Source of the DNA: Eremomyces bilateralis CBS 781.70
Taxonomy: Eukaryota
Length of the DNA stretch: 64,000 nucleotides
Strand: one strand, 5' to 3'
Assembly (NCBI GenBank): GCA_010015585.1
Contig: ML975172.1
Position numbers and translations under genes: made by a program. Shown piece by piece: positions 24,812 to 40,813 of the stretch. The notes beneath the pieces were generated by a model. The model had not been told where the DNA came from. It searched no databases and worked only from the letters and a program-made list of their open reading frames with translations. The stretch's first letter is position 1. Every line of letters starts with the position of its first letter.

Positions 24812-26941
24812 CTACCAACCCCGGCGAAACTCCTCCGGCAGACTCATCAACGCCTCCCTTGCCTCCTCAGCCGGGTGAGGGTCCGCCAACGTCTTCCTAG
24901 ACGTCGACTTGGGGTTCAGCTTCGGCTTCTTCATCGACGGTGATAGCGGCCCGGTGTCCGAGAAATACCCGAAATTGACAAGGTCGGGCGGCGGGACAGC
25001 GTCGTTTGAGCCGAGGGAGTCATTTAACGAGGTCAGCGCCGTGGCGATCTCGGTGTCACTGAGGGAGCCGTGGTAGGGATCGGGGACTTGCTGCTGATCG
25101 ACGGAATAGAAGCCTTGGGAGGGGTTGGGGACTTGAGGATGATCGACGGCTCGAGAGAGTTTATTGGGTTTTTGGAATTGAGGTTGCTCGTCAGTACGGT
25201 ATCGCGGGCGGCCGCGAGGAGAATCACACGAGGTGCGACGTCGAGATCGCTTGAGCGTTTCACGCTCCTCGTCCGACCCCGCATCTTTCTGTTTCCGCTT
25301 GCGCCGCTCGTATCTTGATCGACTCGTCGCTTGCTTGCGTTCCATCCTCGCCCACAAGTACTTATCCTCGTCTCCTAGATGGACTAACTCATTTGAGCCC
25401 TCGAGTCCACGGCTCTTTTTCGTCCTATACATGCTCCTGGACTGCGAGTTGACCTTCGCATTCACAAGCGCATACGTCAGAGTCTTCACATGCGGCTTCC
25501 GGGTGCCCGCTTCGTATTCCCCGTGTTTGGGATAATCAGGATAAATCCCCACCAGAGTCCCGTCTTTACACGACTGAATAAAATTCGCCGCCTTGATCCG
25601 TACGTTCTCGGGTAGCGCCGCCGCGAACCGACCGCCCGGCTCCTTCGGTAGGAATTCTCGTCCGTCGGCCTTGACATCTAGGTGCCTGCAGATCTCCGGG
25701 AAGTCGAGGAATTGCTCCATGCAGTAGAGGTGGACGAACCCGGCGCAGAGGAACGGGTCGCCATCTATTTTCTGGCTGTACCACCGTTCGTCGAACGCCA
25801 CTTTCACCCGACCCTGCCAGATGACGCCCCTCGATAGCCGCTTCCTGCTAGATCCTATCTGCCGATCGGGGCATTCTGCGAAGCGGCATTGCGAGCTGTG
25901 TGAGGAGGGGTACCTTTTGGCCGAGTCAGAGGGTTGCAGTTGGATCCACAGGGTAAGATGCGAGTCTGGCGCGATGGGATGATCGAGGAGGAACTCCCGG
26001 AGCTGGTCACGACGATAGCACGCTTTTTGCAGTCCACCCCAGTTGTCGTAGTCGAACGTGTACCGGGTGCCCAGCCAGAGCTTAAGAGAATTCCTGGGAT
26101 ATCCGTAATGCAGTAAGCTGTCATACTGGTTGGACTGGGCGGCGCGGGCGTTCTCGCGTGACTTGCTGCTGACTCGGATCCATGGCTTATTGGGATCGCT
26201 TTTAGGTCGTTCCCTTCCGTAGGATTTCTTGTGAACGATTTCACTAGCATCGGTTAGTTCTTCTACTGGCGATATGGCACGGGAGTCGGGGTAGTAGTCG
26301 GAGAGGCCCGAGTCGTCGTCGGAATAGTTATGGGGAGCGGGGATTGAGAGCTTTGGTGGCTCTTGACGGGGGTTGATCAAGAAAAAAGACGGATCGGGAC
26401 GGAAATTGAGGGGGTAGAGGGAGGTAGTCGTTATTGTCTGCGACGGCTGTTCGGGGTAGGGAAAGTCTCCTTCGAAATCGCTGAAGTCCAGACTGTTGTC
26501 TACGTCAAACGCATCGATAGTACCCAAGCCCTCCCCACCAAGCAGTTGATCGATATCTTCAACATTGATTTCAGGCACCTTGAGCTGCTGCCTCGACCCA
26601 TTGTTGGCCAGTTCAGGCTGCTGCTCGGCGTCTGCTTCTAGCGATTGGTTTTCTGCTGAGTTCTGCTGAGCTGCACTAGGACGCGACAACTGCGTTACGA
26701 ATTCAAGCTCTTTGATGAACCTGTCATCTGGAGCAAGTTCCGGAAGGGTTTCTAGGGGAGAATCGTTTAAAGACGCAAAGGTATTTTCGTCAAATACGTG
26801 GTTAGCGTAATCCGTTACTCCCGCTTGCAAATTTCTCAACTCCATGAGTCCATCTCGACCAGATAGATCGTCCGCGACAACATTTGGATCGCCTCCGTTT
26901 GACTCAGGAGGATCCTCGAATAAGTCGTTGTAGTCTGACAT
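24812..26941 (-). CDS. Hypothetical fungal protein (709 aa; acidic disordered N-terminus, Cys/His-containing central domain, basic NLS-like tract)
   Basis: Long single ORF with coding-like composition; CRFAECP and GFVHLYCMEQF segments. Confidence 0.75.
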   Translation of the reverse strand: MSDYNDLFEDPPESNGGDPNVVADDLSGRDGLMELRNLQAGVTDYANHVFDENTFASLNDSPLETLPELAPDDRFIKELEFVTQLSRPSAAQQNSAENQSLEADAEQQPELANNGSRQQLKVPEINVEDIDQLLGGEGLGTIDAFDVDNSLDFSDFEGDFPYPEQPSQTITTTSLYPLNFRPDPSFFLINPRQEPPKLSIPAPHNYSDDDSGLSDYYPDSRAISPVEELTDASEIVHKKSYGRERPKSDPNKPWIRVSSKSRENARAAQSNQYDSLLHYGYPRNSLKLWLGTRYTFDYDNWGGLQKACYRRDQLREFLLDHPIAPDSHLTLWIQLQPSDSAKRYPSSHSSQCRFAECPDRQIGSSRKRLSRGVIWQGRVKVAFDERWYSQKIDGDPFLCAGFVHLYCMEQFLDFPEICRHLDVKADGREFLPKEPGGRFAAALPENVRIKAANFIQSCKDGTLVGIYPDYPKHGEYEAGTRKPHVKTLTYALVNAKVNSQSRSMYRTKKSRGLEGSNELVHLGDEDKYLWARMERKQATSRSRYERRKRKQKDAGSDEERETLKRSRRRTSCDSPRGRPRYRTDEQPQFQKPNKLSRAVDHPQVPNPSQGFYSVDQQQVPDPYHGSLSDTEIATALTSLNDSLGSNDAVPPPDLVNFGYFSDTGPLSPSMKKPKLNPKSTSRKTLADPHPAEEAREALMSLPEEFRRGW

Positions 26942-27408
26942 TAGCCCATGGACAAAAAAGGAAACCTAGAACGTTCTTGTGATGCGGTCATGCAGTTGAA
27001 TTGCCGCTATTTGATGCCCGGGATCGAATGGCGAAAGCAAGTTTCATACGGAATATATTGTGATGACCCATAGTGCCAATGTAGATATCAAGTGGCTCGA
27101 AGCTTGGGGGAGAAGTGATCCTTTGATTCTGGCCGCTTTCGGCTCGAAGGGTGTGAAAGGGGCTCCACCTACGCTTCATCAAAGGCTTTATGAAATCGGC
27201 AGTTGAAGAAAATCCAAGCAATGACAAAGCCAAATGACGTCTAAGAACACCGTTCCTTTGTCCTGTTACCAGATGCGGTGCTAGTCCAGATCGACCTCGT
27301 CGACAAACAAAGACCATTGGCTGACCATGTACCATAGGCAGGAACCAGCTCTTCTCTTTCATGCATTTTGTATGGAGAATATCCGAAGTAATAATAACTA
27401 CCCCTAAG

Positions 27409-27480: not shown

Positions 27481-28012
27481 TTTTTGACCGAAGCGAAGAC
27501 AAGATCGCTGACAAGCAAGGCAACGAGCTAATAAAAGGCGCTGGAGAAACTGCTCTTCAGCTGAGGGGATACTGCCGGGGGGTAATAAATCATCATGCAC
27601 GGCTTGGCGCTGTCGCTCCGGCGAAGCCGCCTTGCTCATCGATACAGGATAAGTCTATTGTCGCAGGCCTAAGGCATGAGCTCTAGGAGCTTCATGCTAC
27701 AAACTGCATTAATAATCTTGCCATGACTCTCGTATATCTGTAGGGCCGGGGGACCAGGCATTCAGCTAGAACACACAACTTACACAACTTACACAATACA
27801 ACAACTTTGCTGCTGGAACAACAGCACCTAACTCCCAACCATTTTAGCACATCACGTGCGACATCTATAAACTGGATCGAGAATGAGAATGACAGTCCAC
27901 TGCTGCTGAACATTCCAGGCTTTTTCGACGCATCGAAACGTGACGTTTATTGATATTAGCGCTGACCCTCACTCCTCTGGTAAGGCCCGGTGTTGTCTCC
28001 ACTCCGAAGCCC

Positions 28013-30516
28013 ATGGCAAGCAACACTCCAGACATCAGTAGCGTGTCCACCAACAGCCATTCGCAGGCCGCAGTGGGTACCTTCCACACACCGGTGTATT
28101 TTGGGTATAACAAAAGCGAGTAGAAATAGCTATTCGCTATACGAAGAGGCTAATCGGCCGTCTAGATCTGAATGATGTGCTCAACCCTCTGCCTGCCGCT
28201 ACAGACGCGCCTTTCAACGCCAGCGACAACACGACCCGAGCTGCCTTCCCGATACCCGCGTAGACCTCCTGCAAGGGATATACAACTGGGCTGATGGCCG
28301 AGACGAGCGCTGCATCTTCTGGTTGAACGGTTTAGCCGGCACGGGAAAGTCGACGATTGCGCGCACTGTAGCGCGCACATATGACCAGAAGCGTCTCGGA
28401 GCTAGCTTCTTCTTCTCGCGCGGCGGTGCAGATGTTGGCCATGCAGGCAAATTCATCCCGAGCATTACGTTGCAGCTGGCGAGCAGTATCCCCTCCCTCG
28501 ACCAACATATATACGATGCTCTCACAGAGCGCCGCGACATTATGAGCCAGTCTCTCCGCGACCAGTGGCAGCAGCTCGTTATTCGTCCGCTATTAAAGTT
28601 GGGCAGAGTCAGTTGCCAATCCTCGTACGTTCTGGTTGTTGATGCACTCGATGAGTGTGATAATGACAACAACATCCAAATTATCATACATCTCTTGGCT
28701 GAAGCTCGATTGTTAAAGACGATTCCATTACGAGTCTTCTAACGAGCCGACCTGTGATTCCAATTCGATATGGATTCGGCCAAATACCCGATGTCGAACA
28801 TATGGATTTTGTACTTCACAATATATCATCATCGATTGTCGATCATGATATCCGTACTTTCTTGCGGCACGAGCTTGAACTCATTGCGGCTAGACATCAC
28901 CTCGGCGCTGGTTGGCCTGGGGACCATATCGTCGAGCAACTCGTCCATAGTGCACATGAGCTATTCATTTGGGCTGCAACCGCATGTCGCTTTAACCATG
29001 AAGGCAGAAGCTTTGCTGCGGATCGCCTGTCCATAATCCTCAAGGCTAACTCCGTAGTTGACTCTGTGGACGGATTTTCTTCAGACGACTGCGACAGATG
29101 ACAAGAATGACGATCCTGCAGTGGCGCCGGAGCGTCACCTCGATAAACTCTACGTTACAGTTCTCCGGAATTCTGTCTATAAGTACAAAAAGCCAGAGAG
29201 AAATAAATGGCGTAAGCGACTGGGGACAGCGGTGGTAACGATTGCTGTACTATCTTCTCCTCTGTCCACGCAGTCACTGAGAAAATACTCGATACCACGC
29301 AAGATCAAATAAACCAAACACTAGACGATCTTCATGCGATTCTAAATATTCCAAACGATCAATCTCAACCGCTTTATTTACATCATCCTTCATTTCGGGA
29401 CTTCCTCCTTAATAGAAAAAGATATGAGCATCTACACTTTGAGATAAACGAGAAGCAAGCACATCAAACCCTTGCTACACAGTGCATTCAACTCATGTCT
29501 AGAGTTTTCAAGCAAAATATGTGTAGTATAGGGCGGCCAGGGCCGCTTGTGGCCATATGTGATACAGGCCGGCCCGGTACGCTTGTGGCTGGCATTGAAA
29601 CCCGTCATGTGGAGCAACACCTCCCTCCAGAGGTTCAGTATGCATGTATCTAAGTTACTGGATCCAGCACCTTCAAAAGAGCAACGTTCAGCTCGACGAC
29701 AACGACCAAGGGCACCGGTTCCTACAGGAGCATCTCCTTCATTGGCTAGAGACCCTTGGATGGATGAAGAAGGTTTCCGAAGGAATTCACGCCATCGTTT
29801 CTCTGGAGTCTACGACAGCGGTAAGCCAGAGTTCCAGACTAAACAGAACGTAAGTACTTAGCTAACCTCCAGCATAGTTGTATAGATGTCCCCAGCTACC
29901 TAGATTTGTTTATGACATGAAGCGATTTATCCTGTATAGCCGGTCCGCGATTGAGCAAGCACCGCTCCAAACGTATTGTAGTACGCTTGTGTTTGCTCCG
30001 GAGGGGAGTATGGTGAAGAGGCAATTCAGAGACTGCGCATGTCGATGGTTGCGAAGATTGCCAAAGATGAATCATGATTGGAATGCGTTGCTGCAGACGC
30101 TCGAGGGCCATTCAGGGTTAGTCTACGCCGTGGCCTTCGCGCCAGACGGCAAGACGCTAGTGTCGGCATCGTACGACAGGACGGTCAAGCTGTGGGATGC
30201 CGGGTCGGGCGTGCTGCAGCAGACGCTCGATATTGGAAACACCATCTACGCTCTCACTTTCTTCGATGACAGTACCTCTCTCCGGGCGGTTCTTGGATCC
30301 TTGCCCATTTTATCACCTCTCTCTAGTGGTATAGGTGTGACCAGTCTACAATATCCATCTTCTATTTTTATCAATGACCTTTGGATAAGTAGCCATACAG
30401 AGCGGGTCATTTGGCTTCCTCCCGAGTATCGGCCACGCTTTATTGCTGTTTATGAGTGCATTGTTGCATTCGGATATACATCTGGAAGAGTTATGACCAT
30501 GAAACTTACTTTGTGA
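28013..30516 (+). pseudogene. NACHT-WD40 NLR (HET-E/NWD-like) pseudogene with short N-terminal extension
   Basis: CLPDTRVDLL, FWLNGLAGTGKST Walker A, VLVVDALDEC Walker [30 protein letters not shown], one WD40 repeat, WLPPEYRP; several stops/frameshifts (e.g. 28740, about 29100, 29310). Confidence 0.9.
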
Positions 30517-30709
30517 TATTTCCCTAAGCATTCTTTAACCTCCTCCCCGCCCACATCCGTTACAGATGGCGTCTTTTATATACAACGTGAATAGCACGAG
30601 TGGCGACAGCCGATGGGTAATGTTTGAATACACGCCAAACGACCAACAGAACCGCATTAGTGGCTTGAGACCGAGGCCATTATTGGCATCCTCATATTCT
30701 TTTAGTAGC

Positions 30710-35560: not shown

Positions 35561-35909
35561 ATAGACTGGGTAGCATTTTTTGTCCACAGAGAGCCCAGGC
35601 ATCGACAGTCGGGGAGAATAATCTGTCGGGGGGGAGAAATCTCGCTACCCGGAATAACTTTGGGGTTCGGCGGTCGCACCAATCGTCAAATAGTCGGCAT
35701 AAAGTGAACCTTCCCTTTGGCACCGCAAATCGAATCGTGGTGTCTTTCTGTTTTTTTCCAACTTAAACTTAGAGTACAGTACACGGACTCGCGCTGACTA
35801 ACTGCACTGCCCCGTATACAACACGGTGTATTGAAAGTGATCCCCATGATCAGGATACACCCACTTTGCACTCGCGAATTCTTTCCTACCATCTTCATCT
35901 TTGAATGGT

Positions 35910-36135
35910 GTGTAACCGAGCCGCCATGGCTCTCAAGTGTCTGGATGCATTCGCAGGTATTAGCACGCCAGACCCGGACTATGTTATCACGCGCGGCCAA
36001 GGTGATAAGGACAGAGTTATGCGAGAAGGCCATAGAGGTAACCAAGTCGCCATAGCCGTTATGTGTCTGGACGCAGTCGCCCGTGTCAGCACACCAGACC
36101 TGGACTGTCTTATTATATGAGGCTGAGGCAATAAA
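35910..36135 (-). pseudogene. HET-E-type WD40 repeat remnant (about 2 repeats)
   Basis: KTVQVWCADTGDCVQTHNGYGDLVTSMAFSHNSVLITLAARDNIVRVWRANTCECIQTLESHGGSVT. Confidence 0.75.
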
Positions 36136-36159
36136 GGTAGAGTTTCATCAAATTGCCTA

Positions 36160-37639: not shown

Positions 37640-38935
37640 AACTACGCCATAAGTCTGTTCAGAGTCTACGCACAACAAAATTCAGGCCTGACACCACCAT
37701 ATCTTCCACCATCAATATCTCCACGAAAATGAGGTCGTTTGGTACAGAAATTAGTGGCAATCGACGGCAAAATGCTGAATTATCCGAGAATCAAAGAGCT
37801 GGGATTTTAGAGGCTGTTTCCGGGGGGAAAACTAAGGCCGCGGTGGCAGAGGAGTTTCAGGTCGCAGAACGGACGGTGTACAAGACCTTGCAACGCTGGG
37901 AAGAGCACCACATCACTCAATCTAAACCCCGCCAAGGGGCCCCCCTAAAATTATCGCGTCGCGACGAACGATATCTTGTACAGTACGCACGCCGGTTCCC
38001 CACGGTTGAGTACAGCGAGCTCGTTCAAAGCGTCCGCCATATGCGAGTCTCAAAGACAACGATATACCGGACTCTTAAGAAACACCACCTTACAAAGTGG
38101 CGAGCACGGAAAAGGCCTCATCTGTAGCCCGGGCACGCAAAAAACCGGCTTCAATTTGCCCGCGAGTATCAACATTTCGACTTCTCTGGGTCCACTCAAC
38201 CGACGAGTGCTCCTATGAGAAGGGGGCGGGCGGTAAGCGCGTCTGGGTATGGCGCTTTTATCACGAGGCATACGATCCACGTATGATCGAGCCAAAGACT
38301 TCTGGTAAGGCGATTTCGCGGATGATCTGGGGCTCAATCTCGCGTGAGGGGAGGTCAGATCTGGTGATCATGGACCGCGACGAAGACTCCCCCAGGCAAG
38401 GATATTCCGCGAAATCCTATATCGCTACATGGAGGAGGGACTCCTCCCTACGTACGATCCCGGGGATGTTATGATACAGGATAACGCAAGGGTTCATACT
38501 GCGAAACTCACGCAGGAATGGCTGGAGACTCACGGTATTTGGGTGCTCGATTGGCCAGCTAATTCTCCGGACCTGAACCCCATCGAACACATGTGGCACT
38601 TACTTAAAAGCAAAGTCCTAGAGCTCCACCCTGAATTGAAACAGATGGGCTCATCAGAGGAGGTACGGGAGGCGATGAATGCCGCGTTGAAAGAGGCGTG
38701 GTGGGCAGTGCCTCAGGAAACGATTACCAAGCTAATTGACTCAATTCCGCGGCGGTTACGGGCGGTAATTAAAGCAAAAGGATGGCATACCAAACACTAG
38801 GCTATTCCTAATTAGACAATCTGAAAAAAGTATACTGATCGCTTTCTCTACGCTTTTGAGCGTTTCTCGCAAAGGGGTGGTGATGGGAAAAAATCACGTG
38901 GTTGACGACCCTGAACAGACTTATGGCGTGTTATT
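37640..38935 (+). mobile_element. Tc1/mariner DNA transposon, full length, disrupted transposase (37729-38800)
   Basis: Inverted repeat ACGCCATAAGTCTGTTCAG at 37644 and 38911-38929; HTH N-terminus, TDEC, QDNARVH, WPANSPDLNPIE (DD34E); TAG at 38125 and frameshifts. Confidence 0.92.
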
Positions 38936-38967
38936 GTAGTTAACTAGTTAACTTAACTAACTAACTA

Positions 38968-40813
38968 ACGTAATCCACCAGCGAGTCGCCCAAACCACCG
39001 AGTCGCCCACTTCATCTCCGTAACAGCGATCATCACGATTTTTTCGCAATGTCTCAACAACAGAGCCCTCAATTACCTTCAAATGAAGCTAGAATGAACC
39101 TAGCCATCCAGACTATCGAACAAGACCAAGTTCAATCAATTCGAGAAGCTGCAAAAGCTTACAACGTCCCGTGGAGTACCTTACGTGACCGCCGCAACGG
39201 AATGACTGCACGAAGCGATTGTGTCCCGAATTCGAAAAAGCTCTCAAATATGGAAGAAAGGGTGATTATCGACTACTGCCTCGATGTCGACGCGCGCGGA
39301 TTTCAGCTCAATTACGATATGTTGCGAGATATAGCCAACAAGCTACTCAGCGATCGCGGTCAGGCTCACGTTGGTATCAATTGGCCGTCAAGATTCGTAC
39401 AACGCGTTCCAGAGCTCAAAACACGTGTTAATCGAAAGTACGACTATAAAAGAGCCCTGAACGAAGATCCAGAGATTATTGGCGCGTGGTTTCGCCTCGT
39501 ACGCAACGTGAAGGCAAAATACGGTATCCTGGATGAAGATACATACAACTTTGATGAAGTTGGCTTTCAAATGGGCGTAATCGGGACGCGCATGGTCATC
39601 ACGGGTACCGAACGACGTCAGACTCCAAAAACCTTGCAGCCAGGCAATACAGAATGGGTGACATCGATCATTGCTGCCAGCGCGCAAGGTTGGATTGTCC
39701 CACCCTTCATCATCTTCAAAAGCGCTCGACATTACAATACCTGGTACGAGGCGATTGCGGATAGGCCTGATTGGGTTCTATCAGTTAGCGAGAAGGGCTG
39801 GACGTCCCTTGAGCATGGATTTGAGTGGTTAAAGCATTTTAATCGCTTCACAGAAGACCGTACGACTGGCGCCTATCGGCTTCTGATTATGGATGGCCAT
39901 AACAGCCATGACACTATCCAATTCCAGGATTTCTGCAAGGACCAGAAGATTATTACTCTCTGCATGCCTTCGCATTCATCTCATTTGCTACAACCCCTCG
40001 ACGTTGGCTGTTTTGGGCCATTAAAGCGCGCGTATAGCAAGGAGATTGAGGACTTTATCCGGTGCCGCATCAACCACATCACGAAAGAGGACTTTTTACC
40101 TGCTTTCAAGACCGCCTTCGAAAAAGCAATTGCTACGGAGAATATCCAGGGCGCCTTCAAAGGCGCAGGATTAGTGCCTTTCGATCCAGAAGCTGTTATT
40201 TCAAAGCTTGATGTCCGATTACAGACCCCGACGCCATTACCAGAGATCACTCAATGGGAGTCGCAAACACCACGCAACGTCGCTGAAATAAGGTCCCAAA
40301 CAGAGTACATACGACAGCGCCTTCAAAGAGATCAAAATACCTCCCCAACACCGCTTTTAGAAAGCTTTTCAAGCCTTGAAAAGGGTGTTCAAATGGTCGC
40401 GCACGGAGCTTCAATCATGGAGGTCGAGATAGGAAAGCTTCGGAAGGCAAACGAGACGCTATCAAAGCGCAAACAACGCAAAAAAAAGGTGCTTAAGGGC
40501 GCTAATACGCGCTCAATTACTGATGGGCTTGAATTAGCTGTACAACGTCGGGATCAAGATATAATCAGTGAAAATGGTACTTCTAATGACGTTCCCGCAA
40601 GGCGCCAGCGACGTTGCGGACGCTGTCGCGAGCCAGGACATCGCGTTGAGACCTGTACAATGCCTCAATTAGCTATACCAGAAAACGTAGATCCTAGCCT
40701 ACTTCCTAATTAATAAATTGCTTCAGTAGTTGTTGAGATATTCAGGTTACGGTAGTGGGCCACGGTTGAGGTGGGCGACTCGGTGGTTTGGGCGACTCGC
40801 TGGTGGATTACGT
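38968..40813 (+). mobile_element. Fot1/pogo-like DNA transposon, apparently intact
   Basis: Perfect 43-bp TIRs (ACGTAATCCACCAGCGAGTCGCCCAAACCACCGAGTCGCCCAC), TA on both sides, uninterrupted transposase. Confidence 0.97.
39049..40713 (+). CDS. Fot1/pogo transposase (HTH_psq, CENP-B HTH, DDE_1, C-terminal CCHC)
   Basis: YNFDEVGF, LIMDGHNSH, SHLLQPLDVGCF, RCGRCREPGHRVETC. Confidence 0.96.
   Translation: MSQQQSPQLPSNEARMNLAIQTIEQDQVQSIREAAKAYNVPWSTLRDRRNGMTARSDCVPNSKKLSNMEERVIIDYCLDVDARGFQLNYDMLRDIANKLLSDRGQAHVGINWPSRFVQRVPELKTRVNRKYDYKRALNEDPEIIGAWFRLVRNVKAKYGILDEDTYNFDEVGFQMGVIGTRMVITGTERRQTPKTLQPGNTEWVTSIIAASAQGWIVPPFIIFKSARHYNTWYEAIADRPDWVLSVSEKGWTSLEHGFEWLKHFNRFTEDRTTGAYRLLIMDGHNSHDTIQFQDFCKDQKIITLCMPSHSSHLLQPLDVGCFGPLKRAYSKEIEDFIRCRINHITKEDFLPAFKTAFEKAIATENIQGAFKGAGLVPFDPEAVISKLDVRLQTPTPLPEITQWESQTPRNVAEIRSQTEYIRQRLQRDQNTSPTPLLESFSSLEKGVQMVAHGASIMEVEIGKLRKANETLSKRKQRKKKVLKGANTRSITDGLELAVQRRDQDIISENGTSNDVPARRQRRCGRCREPGHRVETCTMPQLAIPENVDPSLLPN

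Follow-up and report, generated by a model that had tools for sequence, protein, structure and literature searches.

At positions 28013-30516 on the plus strand of the window, that is, the 64,000-nucleotide stretch of Eremomyces bilateralis CBS 781.70 contig ML975172.1 analysed here, lies what is very probably an NWD2-type NACHT-WD40 NLR pseudogene that is transcribed and correctly spliced and whose first exon encodes an r0 motif of the HRAM2 subfamily. This copy of the gene is no longer able to work as a receptor, given that it combines five indel frame switches, a WD40 domain reduced to one unit, proline at position 3 of the motif, a first-intron donor changed from GT to GC (albeit still used), and a message that encodes only 66 residues.

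Gene structure and splicing

The coding sequence starts at 28013, the first in-frame ATG after a stop, and its product, MASNTPDISSVSTNSHSQAAVGTFHTPVYFGYNK, begins at the same methionine as the homologous NLRs, in agreement with the start proposed in the first-pass annotation of this DNA. No Pfam domain lies ahead of NACHT, which likewise upholds the view that the N-terminus lacks an enzymatic, HET, or HeLo domain. The GC-AG intron predicted to follow (GCGAGT at 28116, GCTAAT at 28149-28154, TAG at 28163-28165; Table 1) is removed exactly as anticipated in a contig of run X3, which is probably RNA: this 834-nt contig joins 28115 to 28166 with 0 mismatches, leaving out the 50 nt with their GC..AG ends, and the join is flanked by at least 216 letters on either side. 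X3 comes from another study than the DNA runs X1 and X2, and its label, "RNA?", is a guess, but its two intron-shaped joints, 28115>28166 (GC..AG) and 29819/20>29877 (GT..AG), argue for RNA; both joints are absent from X1 and X2, and the contigs of these runs read continuously through the first intron. The second intron takes out three in-frame stops. Upstream of 28013, the same X3 contig includes a leader of at least 113 nt (back to 27900), with 62 letters beyond, so that the term "micro-exon," by which this exon had been described, fits its 103 coding nt only loosely.

In homologous loci, the intron site is common to 6/6, but the donor there is GT (A followed by GTGAGT or GTGAGC at the equivalent site), as opposed to GC in the window copy. 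The motif exon with its phase-1 intron is a conserved module that heads many Dothideomycete NLRs, and it also heads one or more NLRs from another NACHT clade. In the spliced frame, exon 2 reads (N)LNDVLNPLPAATDAPFN, and the complete spliced ORF has 66 codons, retaining the r0 motif and the linker. The earlier expectation that exon 2 is joined in frame and precedes NACHT was right about the splice join and wrong about the continuation: the frame ends at a TAG, and NACHT lies in another frame because of a deletion of ~4 nt at about 28220.

Table 1. Features of the pseudogene locus, in coordinates of the window
Feature	Position	Strand	Details and evidence
First coding exon	28013..28115	+	34 codons plus 1 base; sequence and RNA-type contig covering 27900-28115
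HRAM positions 1-21 (residues 4-24)	28022-28084	+	N T P D I S S V S T N S H S Q A A V G T F
Phase-1 intron, 50 nt	28116..28165	+	GC donor GCGAGT, GCTAAT branch-like site, TAG acceptor; X3 contig join
Exon 2 start, spliced frame	28166..28263	+	(N)LNDVLNPLPAATDAPFNASDNTTRAAFPIPA, then TAG at 28261-28263
Frame switch 1	28213..28227	+	~4 nt missing between APFN and QRQHDPSCLP; tblastn, paralog contigs, homologs
NACHT/NPHP3_N domain, in a frame other than that of the exon 2 start	28221..28739	+	PF24883 6.3e-27, PF05729 3.5e-07
P-loop GLAGTGKST	28329-28355	+	within NACHT; Walker B VLVVDALDECD also present
Frame switch 2	28737..28740	+	1-nt deletion at 28738/9; RVF* where RV[LF]LTSRP expected
Middle of NOD module (winged helix, PF25521)	28736..29650	+	frames alternate; translations, Pfam, tblastn
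Frame switch 3	29059-29124	+	tblastn and translations
Frame switch 4	29282-29303	+	tblastn and translations
Frame switch 5	29620-29650	+	EVQYAC / YWIQHLQ; tblastn and translations
Second intron, 57 nt, in frame	29821..29877	+	GTAAGC..GCTAAC..TAG; X3 contig skips 57 nt, GT..AG
C-terminal part: one WD40 unit (~30088-30198) and tail	29878..30516	+	PF00400 8.1e-14, one stretch
Stop codon	30514-30516	+	end of C-terminal part

The N-terminal motif and its partner effector

In a profile search against 1.84 billion representatives, the motif opens an NLR, or a fragment of one, in 11 of the 14 matches with E<=1e-3, and the homologs share the start methionine, so that the motif passes the conservation check to which it had been put. 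A word-indexed search at E<=10 yielded 20 matches, namely, 13 NACHT proteins and 7 N-terminal fragments; in the window copy, a single motif begins at residue 4, with NACHT downstream, and the 13 NACHT-bearing matches share this layout. Eremomyces bilateralis itself supplies 7 of these 20 matches, one of which, P0141, is the annotated model of the 28013-30516 locus. Judging from these sequence comparisons, the motif is conserved well beyond chance. When the motif profile was run against the six-frame ORFs of the 64-kb window, the exon scored 78.5 bits and the next best hit 7.9, with no second copy of the motif.

By definition, an HRAM carries G at position 19, and its positions 5, 8, 10, 16, and 18 are hydrophobic, T being tolerated at 10 (Daskalov, Dyrka & Saupe 2015, Sci Rep 5:12494; hereafter Daskalov et al. 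2015). The window peptide has G22 at HRAM position 19, along with I5, V8, T10, A16, and V18, and G is found at position 19 in 49/50 r1 and 49/50 r2 strings of the effectors described below and in 19/20 r0 strings of motif-bearing NLRs, the r0 counts referring to 20 pattern-picked strings from which a 21st, a second partial match in P0017, was excluded. At position 15, where R/K is a preference and r0 motifs carry fewer charges (Daskalov et al. 2015), the window has Q, and S/I/V or F/I/V occupy this place in the effector repeats. The HRAM2 subfamily is marked by Q at position 3, and Q at 16 or 18 marks HRAM5 and HRAM4 (Daskalov et al. 2015); neither of the latter positions is Q in the window motif (A16, V18) or in the effectors (A/V/S and A/T/V). 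Position 3 is Q in all 50 r1, all 50 r2, and all 20 r0 strings (the excluded second copy in P0017 has E), whereas the window copy has P3 (ACT CCA GAC). As far as these strings go, Q3 is a feature of the motif family that was lost in the window copy.

The window peptide also scores 11.3 bits against a profile built from effector r2 repeats only, a value reached by none of 5000 shuffles (best shuffle, 8.6); against the r1 profile, it scores -1.0 bits, which 1903 of the 5000 shuffles reach. In a profile-profile comparison with hhalign, the r0 profile matches the effector profile with E 3e-05, r0 being aligned to r2. The proposal that this is a HET-s-related motif of the NWD2 type, present as an r0 copy, is thus sustained by both the 21-residue HRAM pattern and the matches to effector-repeat-only profiles. 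The window r0 resembles r2 rather than r1, unlike the published tendency of HRAM2 r0 motifs to resemble r1 (Daskalov et al. 2015).

An HRAM effector is a HeLo or HeLo-like protein of less than ~310 residues with two motif copies in the last 80, separated by a loop of 6-18 residues. Motif-only searches, both against the 1.84 billion representatives and word-indexed, returned no effector, and one was reached only through the DNA adjoining a metagenome NLR homolog. A metagenome scan for homologous loci, with 6 closer sequences as queries, included a locus, L005, in which a divergent neighbour gene lies beside a motif-bearing NLR; its product matches PF17111 (6.1e-23) and SesA (1.6e-08), and its C-terminus matches the NLR-motif profile twice, with 14.4 and 10.1 bits. 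In L002, L003, and L006, the upstream gene resembles, by eye, a housekeeping S-adenosylmethionine synthetase. With the C-terminus of the L005 effector as the query, 54 proteins were recovered, mostly PF17111 proteins of ~300 residues, and in 50 of the 54, r1, a loop of 7-8 residues, and r2 are seen. Among them is P0155 of Eremomyces bilateralis (300 residues; r1 235-255, r2 264-284), the effector with the same motif in two C-terminal copies for which a search of this genome had been suggested. The L005 neighbour and P0155 are both HeLo-like, ~300 residues long, and end in two motif copies. The AF2 monomer model of P0155 predicts a strand-turn-strand arrangement for each repeat (strands 238-244, 249-255, 267-273, and 278-284), with pLDDT of 62-80 over the repeats by 10-residue block; a Foldseek search with this model found nothing in PDB at E<=0.001, the listed matches being generic helical bundles.

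No effector homolog was found within the 64-kb window, and P0155 and P0141 are on contigs of different length (318,057 vs 357,934), for which reason the P0155 gene is probably located elsewhere in the genome than the pseudogene. The NLR and effector genes are adjacent in L005, and such adjacency is common but not universal, with 98 cases among 155 (Daskalov et al. 2015). In Eremomyces bilateralis, at least seven NLRs carry the motif against one detected effector, P0155; one genome can thus carry at least seven receptors with this motif that appear to share a single detected effector.

This HeLo-like effector family, together with the r0 motifs of neighbouring NLRs, is present in the accessible part of the Daskalov et al. 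2015 supplement, where the rows that contain QDISDV include two each for A. fumigatus and Cadophora, all from this effector family. These rows bear no printed subfamily label, and the HRAM2 label follows from the criteria in the text of that paper and from its Table 1, which lists two HRAM2 each, and nothing else, for A. fumigatus and Cadophora; by these published criteria, we infer that the effector family is HRAM2, and we place the window r0 with it despite its P3. The motif was already described in 2015 and is not new. The suggestion that it may be a new variant is therefore overturned by that supplement, and the record for this candidate "new" amyloid N-terminus is corrected to an HRAM subfamily published in 2015. 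The 34-residue peptide has no Pfam match at E<=10, including PF11558 HET-s_218-289, NACHT_sigma, and Ses_B, and neither the strings ISGVSAN, VAGTVHG, and AAVGTF nor Eremomyces occur in the searchable supplements of Wojciechowski et al. 2022, both of which would fit a new amyloid signalling family distinct from HRAM, PP, sigma, and PUASM. Such a family is nevertheless decidedly improbable: the HRAM data set, as far as the supplement was consulted, includes the cognate effector family along with r0 motifs like this one, the window motif agrees with the HRAM definition at every pattern position, and the Pfam miss is to be expected because only 38 of the 155 HRAM proteins match the Pfam HET-s model (Daskalov et al. 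2015).

By analogy with HET-S/NWD2 and HELLF/FNT1, we propose a templating mechanism for HRAM2. In intact relatives, the WD40 domain would sense a ligand, whereupon the NLR would oligomerise and the clustered N-terminal r0 motifs might adopt a beta-solenoid-like amyloid fold. This fold could then template the two-repeat (r1/r2) C-terminal domain of the ~300-residue HeLo-like protein, the N-terminal domain of which would attack the membrane and cause cell death.

There is a slim chance that the remnant itself has been kept within this pathway, the 66-residue, r0-only peptide serving as a seed free of regulation or else as a cap that prevents templating of the HeLo-like effector. The leader, the start codon, the motif exon, and both introns remain in use at the transcript level, the 66-codon ORF retains r0 and the linker, and an effector with matching r1/r2, P0155, exists in the same species; yet frame switches 2-5 and the proline in the conserved position 3 look like neutral decay, stops as premature as this generally leave a message open to decay, and translation of the peptide is conjectural. 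The more specific scenario, in which the locus survives as a micro-gene whose r0 peptide, with proline at the ladder position and no restraining NOD, caps or slows P0155 templating, we regard as a long shot. Were the r0-only transcript translated, it would offer a natural test of a free receptor-side amyloid motif, and were the micro-gene scenario true, it would act as an internal damper on a cell-death switch of the amyloid type, the detected effector of which at least seven NLR paralogs appear to share.

Decay of the receptor gene

The reading that we favour, a pseudogene, is anchored in the comparison with intact homologs. Against fungal NACHT-WD40 proteins, the NACHT region reaches 82% identity, and tblastn with intact homologs reveals five frame changes across which the query coordinates are contiguous or overlapping. 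At the first, frame 1 ends and frame 3 begins at 28221; paralog contigs that fit from 28220 onward have ...TTCAATACATA immediately before that point, and homologs read APFNAYQRQHDP at this site. At the second, the base missing from the window, an A, is present behind 28738 in a paralog contig of X1. Of the WD40 array, Pfam detects a single stretch, and every WD repeat of P0006, a homolog of 1157 residues, aligns to that same unit. At 28013-30516, no single open frame spans NACHT, the winged helix, and a WD40 array of several blades, and the working NLR that the first-pass annotation implied has to be given up in view of the five frame switches and the WD40 domain collapsed to one unit.

The public annotation treats the locus as a working NLR, P0141, of 302 residues, in which a different intron (~28106-28204) links the motif exon to NACHT and a second stretch is skipped, and the P0141 protein indeed matches the window in three pieces (28013-28105, ~28200-28649, and 28703-29098). 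This alternative is extremely unlikely: the model omits the Walker B stretch and, with its 302 residues, reaches neither the winged helix nor WD40, and the RNA-type contigs use the 28116-28165 intron and are unspliced over 28166-28721 and 28692-29819, although rare isoforms could be missed. The public annotation models a dead gene as a 302-residue protein through invented introns.

All five switch sites are matched, with 0 mismatches and 0 gaps, by contigs of X1, X2, and X3 (an X3 contig over 28692-29819 and X1/X2 contigs over 28691/2-30103 among them), that is, by three runs from two studies, X3 being possibly of the same strain, so that the switches could be strain-specific rather than species-fixed. 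Although indel errors are common in some assemblies, the idea that errors of assembly or sequencing produced the frame switches in a truly intact gene can be practically dismissed because DNA and RNA contigs are identical to the window at every switch, neighbouring genes keep long intact frames (1060, 717, 579, 517, and 474 codons), and the reduction of WD40 to one unit is not an effect of indel errors.

Relation to known amyloid signalling systems

Several other short N-terminal motifs, PP, sigma, PUASM, and the unassigned NLR34, are likewise borne by NACHT or NACHT-WD40 proteins, according to the accessible material of Wojciechowski et al. 2022. The G-x-Q-x-G pattern of PP and the FxGxGxQxxGxGxF pattern of PUASM, as given there, are absent from the window motif. 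NLR34, at residues 5-32 of Fusarium NACHT proteins, has a similar layout; it was considered as an identity for the motif and judged unlikely, its members in the material consulted coming from Fusarium and Tuber and none of the named matches coming from either (8 of the 20 matches have no source name).

The closest relatives are the HRAM2 pairs, which, in the portions of Daskalov et al. 2015 consulted, have the same 21-residue pattern as the window motif, likewise borne once, as r0, at the extreme N-terminus of a NACHT-WD40 NLR. Published examples in these portions come from Aspergillus fumigatus, Cadophora, Aaosphaeria arxii, Aulographum hederae, and Cladonia grayi; Eremomyces bilateralis is not in the QDISDV-containing rows of the supplement. 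The effector C-termini are alike, with TGQKIKGVKATN..S.LAGFI, an 8-residue loop, and IDQDISDVTADN.S.A.AGVI, and the published r0 motifs, for example, RQQDISGVSAQNHSQVFAGHA, are similar to that of the window. Unlike these pairs, the window copy has P for Q at position 3, lacks an adjoining effector, and is a pseudogene.

NWD2/HET-S of Podospora anserina (HRAM1) shares the NACHT-WD40 layout, with one motif copy and no other N-terminal domain, and HET-S-type pairs include an effector with two C-terminal copies and a proposed templating, as for HRAM2. This system belongs to another subfamily, with N at position 3, and its effector is a HeLo protein, not a HeLo-like one. Furthermore, HET-S/NWD2 has been experimentally tested, whereas the HRAM2 family is known here from sequence and predicted structure; the literature searched under the term HRAM2, as far as it was accessible, contained no amyloid experiment on this subfamily, and in the accessible parts of the HELLF/FNT1 work, HRAM-2 was only homology-modelled. 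The HRAM5 sub-motifs QxFG and QG(QI), as described in those parts, are absent from the window motif. FNT1/HELLF of Podospora anserina (HRAM5) nevertheless combines, in the same source, a HeLo-like effector, a two-repeat prion domain, and an adjoining r0 NLR, and the prion behaviour and solenoid fold have been experimentally shown (FNT1/HELLF study).

The motif exon and its splicing

The start and the splice proposed in the first-pass annotation hold up. In the window sequence, no in-frame ATG lies between the preceding stop and 28013; the ATG there opens MASNTPDISSVSTNSHSQAAVGTFHTPVYFGYNK, and after the splice the frame continues, as had been read, with (N)LNDVLNPLPAATDAPFN. We compared the window over 27900-30600 with contigs assembled from three public sequencing runs, of which X1 and X2 are listed as DNA-type and come from one sample, and X3, from another sample and study, was guessed to be RNA. 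An X3 contig of 834 nt spans 27900-28115 and 28166-28721 with 0 mismatches and omits exactly the 50 nt of the GC..AG intron; another, of 1195 nt, spans 28692-29819 and then omits a second stretch, with GT..AG ends. Both intron sites are uninterrupted in the X1 and X2 contigs, and because the two intron-shaped joints occur only in X3, we take this run, whose label alone would be insufficient, to be cDNA.

In all six homologous loci fetched from metagenome contigs, the intron lies at the same phase-1 position, but the donor is A|GTGAG[TC], with GT rather than GC, so the GC donor of the window copy is a T-to-C change. The first intron, with its changed donor, is still in use. The gene models P0004, P0035, P0039 and P0078 either begin within the intron or continue across it out of frame, which reveals the same exon-intron layout in their genomes. 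At one metagenomic locus (L001, 358-390), the conserved intron is down to 27 nt, in frame, and read through in the protein model P0138 (…GASESERLADGSPDLNNVL…); it seems to be on the way to becoming coding sequence.

Coordinates of the locus features and of its surroundings in the window
Feature	Position	Strand	Detail
First intron	28116-28165	+	50 nt, GC..AG
GC donor GCGAGT	28116	+	window sequence
Branch-like GCTAAT	28149-28154	+	window sequence
Acceptor TAG	28163-28165	+	window sequence
Second intron	29821-29877	+	57 nt, GT..AG, in frame; takes out three stop codons
TAG closing the spliced ORF	28261-28263		66 codons
tblastn stretch	up to 28221		frame 1
tblastn stretch	28221-28739		frame 3
tblastn stretch	28736-29059		frame 2
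tblastn stretch	29124-29303		frame 3
tblastn stretch	29282-29650		frame 2
tblastn stretch	29620-30513		frame 1
WD40 unit	30084-30265		single
Public model P0141	28013-28105, about 28200-28649, 28703-29098		302 residues
Upstream neighbour	24812-26965	-	intact 717-codon open frame; no Pfam match at E<=0.1
Orphan WD40 fragment	35689-36144	-	152-codon open frame; WD40 9.8e-10; no NACHT alongside
Transposon remains	37642-40713	+	adjoin the decayed region
HTH_Tnp_Tc3_2	37642-38127	+	split Tc1/mariner-like piece
DDE_3	38348-38800	+	split Tc1/mariner-like piece
DDE_1 and HTH_psq	38974-40713	+	579-codon open frame

Decay of the receptor gene

Neither the exon of 34 residues nor the linker has a Pfam match; the pieces downstream contain NPHP3_N/NACHT (6.3e-27 and 3.5e-07), then a winged helix of the TANC1 type (3.5e-07) and a single WD40 stretch (8.1e-14), a pattern that marks an NLR of the NACHT-WD40 kind and agrees with the earlier claim that a large N-terminal domain is absent. 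The working NLR that this reading implied, with the spliced frame leading into the NACHT, is not present, however: the spliced ORF closes short of the NACHT, a single WD40 unit is left, and tblastn with the intact homologs P0006, P0009, P0014 and P0036 reveals five frame changes along the locus, while the protein coordinates remain contiguous or overlapping. At the first switch, where homologs have APFNAYQRQHDP and paralog contigs fitting from 28220 on have ...TTCAATACATA directly before it, ~4 nt are missing from the window; at the second, a paralog contig has an extra A behind 28738. In P0006, a homolog of 1157 residues, every WD repeat maps to the one window unit. Assembly error as the source of the switches is ruled out: contigs of X1, X2 and X3 (the last may represent the very strain that was assembled) cover every switch with 0 gaps, and other window genes have open frames of 1060, 717, 579, 517 and 474 codons, so the lesions are real. 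The receptor function of the window copy is lost.

The public model of the locus, P0141 (hypothetical protein, Eremomyces bilateralis CBS 781.70), sidesteps two of the frame switches through introns absent from the RNA-type contigs and lacks the Walker B stretch; its open frame is forced, and the model is an artefact.

Over the single WD40 unit, the summed contig word depth is ~12,000-34,000, against ~60-240 alongside, in all three runs, and many near-identical variant contigs are present, which together imply very many near-identical WD40 units in the genome, as expected of NWD-type repeats kept alike by exchange. Farther along, the orphan WD40 fragment sits in a 7-kb stretch (30.5-37.6 kb) free of other Pfam domains, followed by the transposon remains.

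The partner effector and the spread of the motif

Neither motif search, against 1.84 billion representatives or word-indexed, returned an effector, and the window contains none. One was found via genomic context at L005, a homologous metagenomic locus, where the divergently oriented neighbour of the motif-NLR (ATG 4203, stop about 3224, one intron) encodes PF17111 (6.1e-23) and SesA (1.6e-08) domains and, near the C-terminus, two matches to the NLR-motif profile, QKIKGVKATNYSSVLAGFINTS and QDISDVIADNWSVAVTGV. With its last 105 residues as query, 54 proteins were recovered among 185 candidates, mostly PF17111 proteins of ~300 residues from many Pezizomycotina, including P0155 of E. bilateralis; 50 of the 54 carry two motif copies, r1 and r2, separated by a loop of 7-8 residues. 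In the AF2 model of P0155 (41 sequences, mean pLDDT 69.7), the N-terminal part is helical, and r1 (238-244 and 249-255) and r2 (267-273 and 278-284) each form a strand-turn-strand. Locus tags suggest that effector g13442 and NLR g13444 of Alternaria tenuissima are adjacent, and the Pyrenophora effector and NLR each lie on a contig of 8688 nt.

We took the best 120 of the 7500 NACHT homologs (E<=1e-10; 8000 candidates scored). In 95 of these the N-terminus is shorter than 150 residues, and 25 have long domains, HET and PNP_UDP among them; the motif profile matches six at E<=1e-3. Against the 1.84 billion representatives, a five-copy profile matched 14 proteins at E<=1e-3, of which 11 are NLRs or NLR fragments that begin with the motif and the others are three unrelated repeat proteins. 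The word-indexed search with a 15-sequence profile gave 20 at E<=10 (13 with NACHT, seven N-terminal fragments), the named sources being Pyrenophora tritici-repentis, Alternaria alternata, A. tenuissima and E. bilateralis (seven entries). In P0139 (JGI source), the same N-terminal motif, r0, heads a different NACHT clade (…ILEWITPIDY…GIPGAGKT…), which argues that the motif exon has been shuffled between NLR types. P0017, named Eremomyces bilateralis, has a partial r0 duplication at its N-terminus (MSGNTELVSGVSTNTQIIRGVSTNNRSQAAVGTF…), with two overlapping motif matches. In the model P0125 (JGI source), a HET-domain start (…YAILSHTWG…EVTF…) continues in frame into r0; either the gene model is mis-predicted or the remnant of a HET domain precedes an r0-NLR.

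By analogy with HET-S/NWD2, a ligand would drive NLR oligomerisation in this family, the clustered r0 is predicted to fold into an amyloid nucleus, and this nucleus could template r1/r2 of the effector, which would then activate its HeLo-like killing domain. Of this scheme, the data show the motif common to NLR and effector, the r0/r1/r2 layout, neighbouring genes at one locus (L005) and, by source names, the presence of both partners in one species.

Relationship to known HET-s-related motifs

Daskalov, Dyrka and Saupe (2015, PMC4518210) describe the HET-s-related amyloid motif (HRAM) as 21 residues with G at 19, hydrophobic residues at 5, 8, 10, 16 and 18 (T permitted at 10) and R/K preferred at 15; the subfamilies are told apart by N (HRAM1), Q (HRAM2) or H (HRAM3) at position 3 and by Q at 18 (HRAM4) or 16 (HRAM5). 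The window motif (N1 T2 P3 D4 I5 S6 S7 V8 S9 T10 N11 S12 H13 S14 Q15 A16 A17 V18 G19 T20 F21) fits the core pattern, in line with the HET-s-related kind originally assigned. Its P at position 3 contrasts with Q in 20/20 pattern-picked r0 strings of motif-bearing NLRs and in every r1 and r2; the exception is E in a 21st r0 string, from the partial second copy of P0017.

The idea of a new variant does not survive: the supplement of PMC4518210 already includes the effector family (in A. fumigatus, motif 1 TGQKIKGVKATNHSSSLAGFI, loop NTSGDELT, motif 2 IDQDISDVTADNWSVAAAGVI) and r0 of adjoining NLRs, such as RQQDISGVSAQNHSQVFAGHA and GHQSISGISTTNGAQTVTGIV. Its rows with QDISDV number two per species, for A. 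fumigatus and Cadophora, all of this effector family, and Table 1 there gives HRAM2 twice for each of the two and no other class; because these counts agree, the family is most likely HRAM2, although the supplement prints no class per row. The locus represents a known family in decayed form. In the accounts consulted, Loquet and Saupe (2017) illustrate HRAM2 with a pair from Penicillium roqueforti, the HELLF preprint presents HRAM5 as experimentally validated and HRAM-2 as solely homology-modelled, and Wojciechowski et al. (2022) list PP, HRAM, sigma, PUASM and unassigned motifs.

Against profiles built exclusively from effector repeats, the window peptide scored 11.3 bits with r2 (reached by 0/5000 shuffles, best 8.6), 9.4 bits with r1 and r2 combined (4/5000) and -1.0 bits with r1 (1903/5000), and hhalign of the r0 and effector alignments pairs r0 residues 5-25 with r2 (E 3e-05, probability 73%). 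The window r0 resembles r2, not r1, whereas the HRAM2 trend, as presented in PMC4518210, is the opposite.
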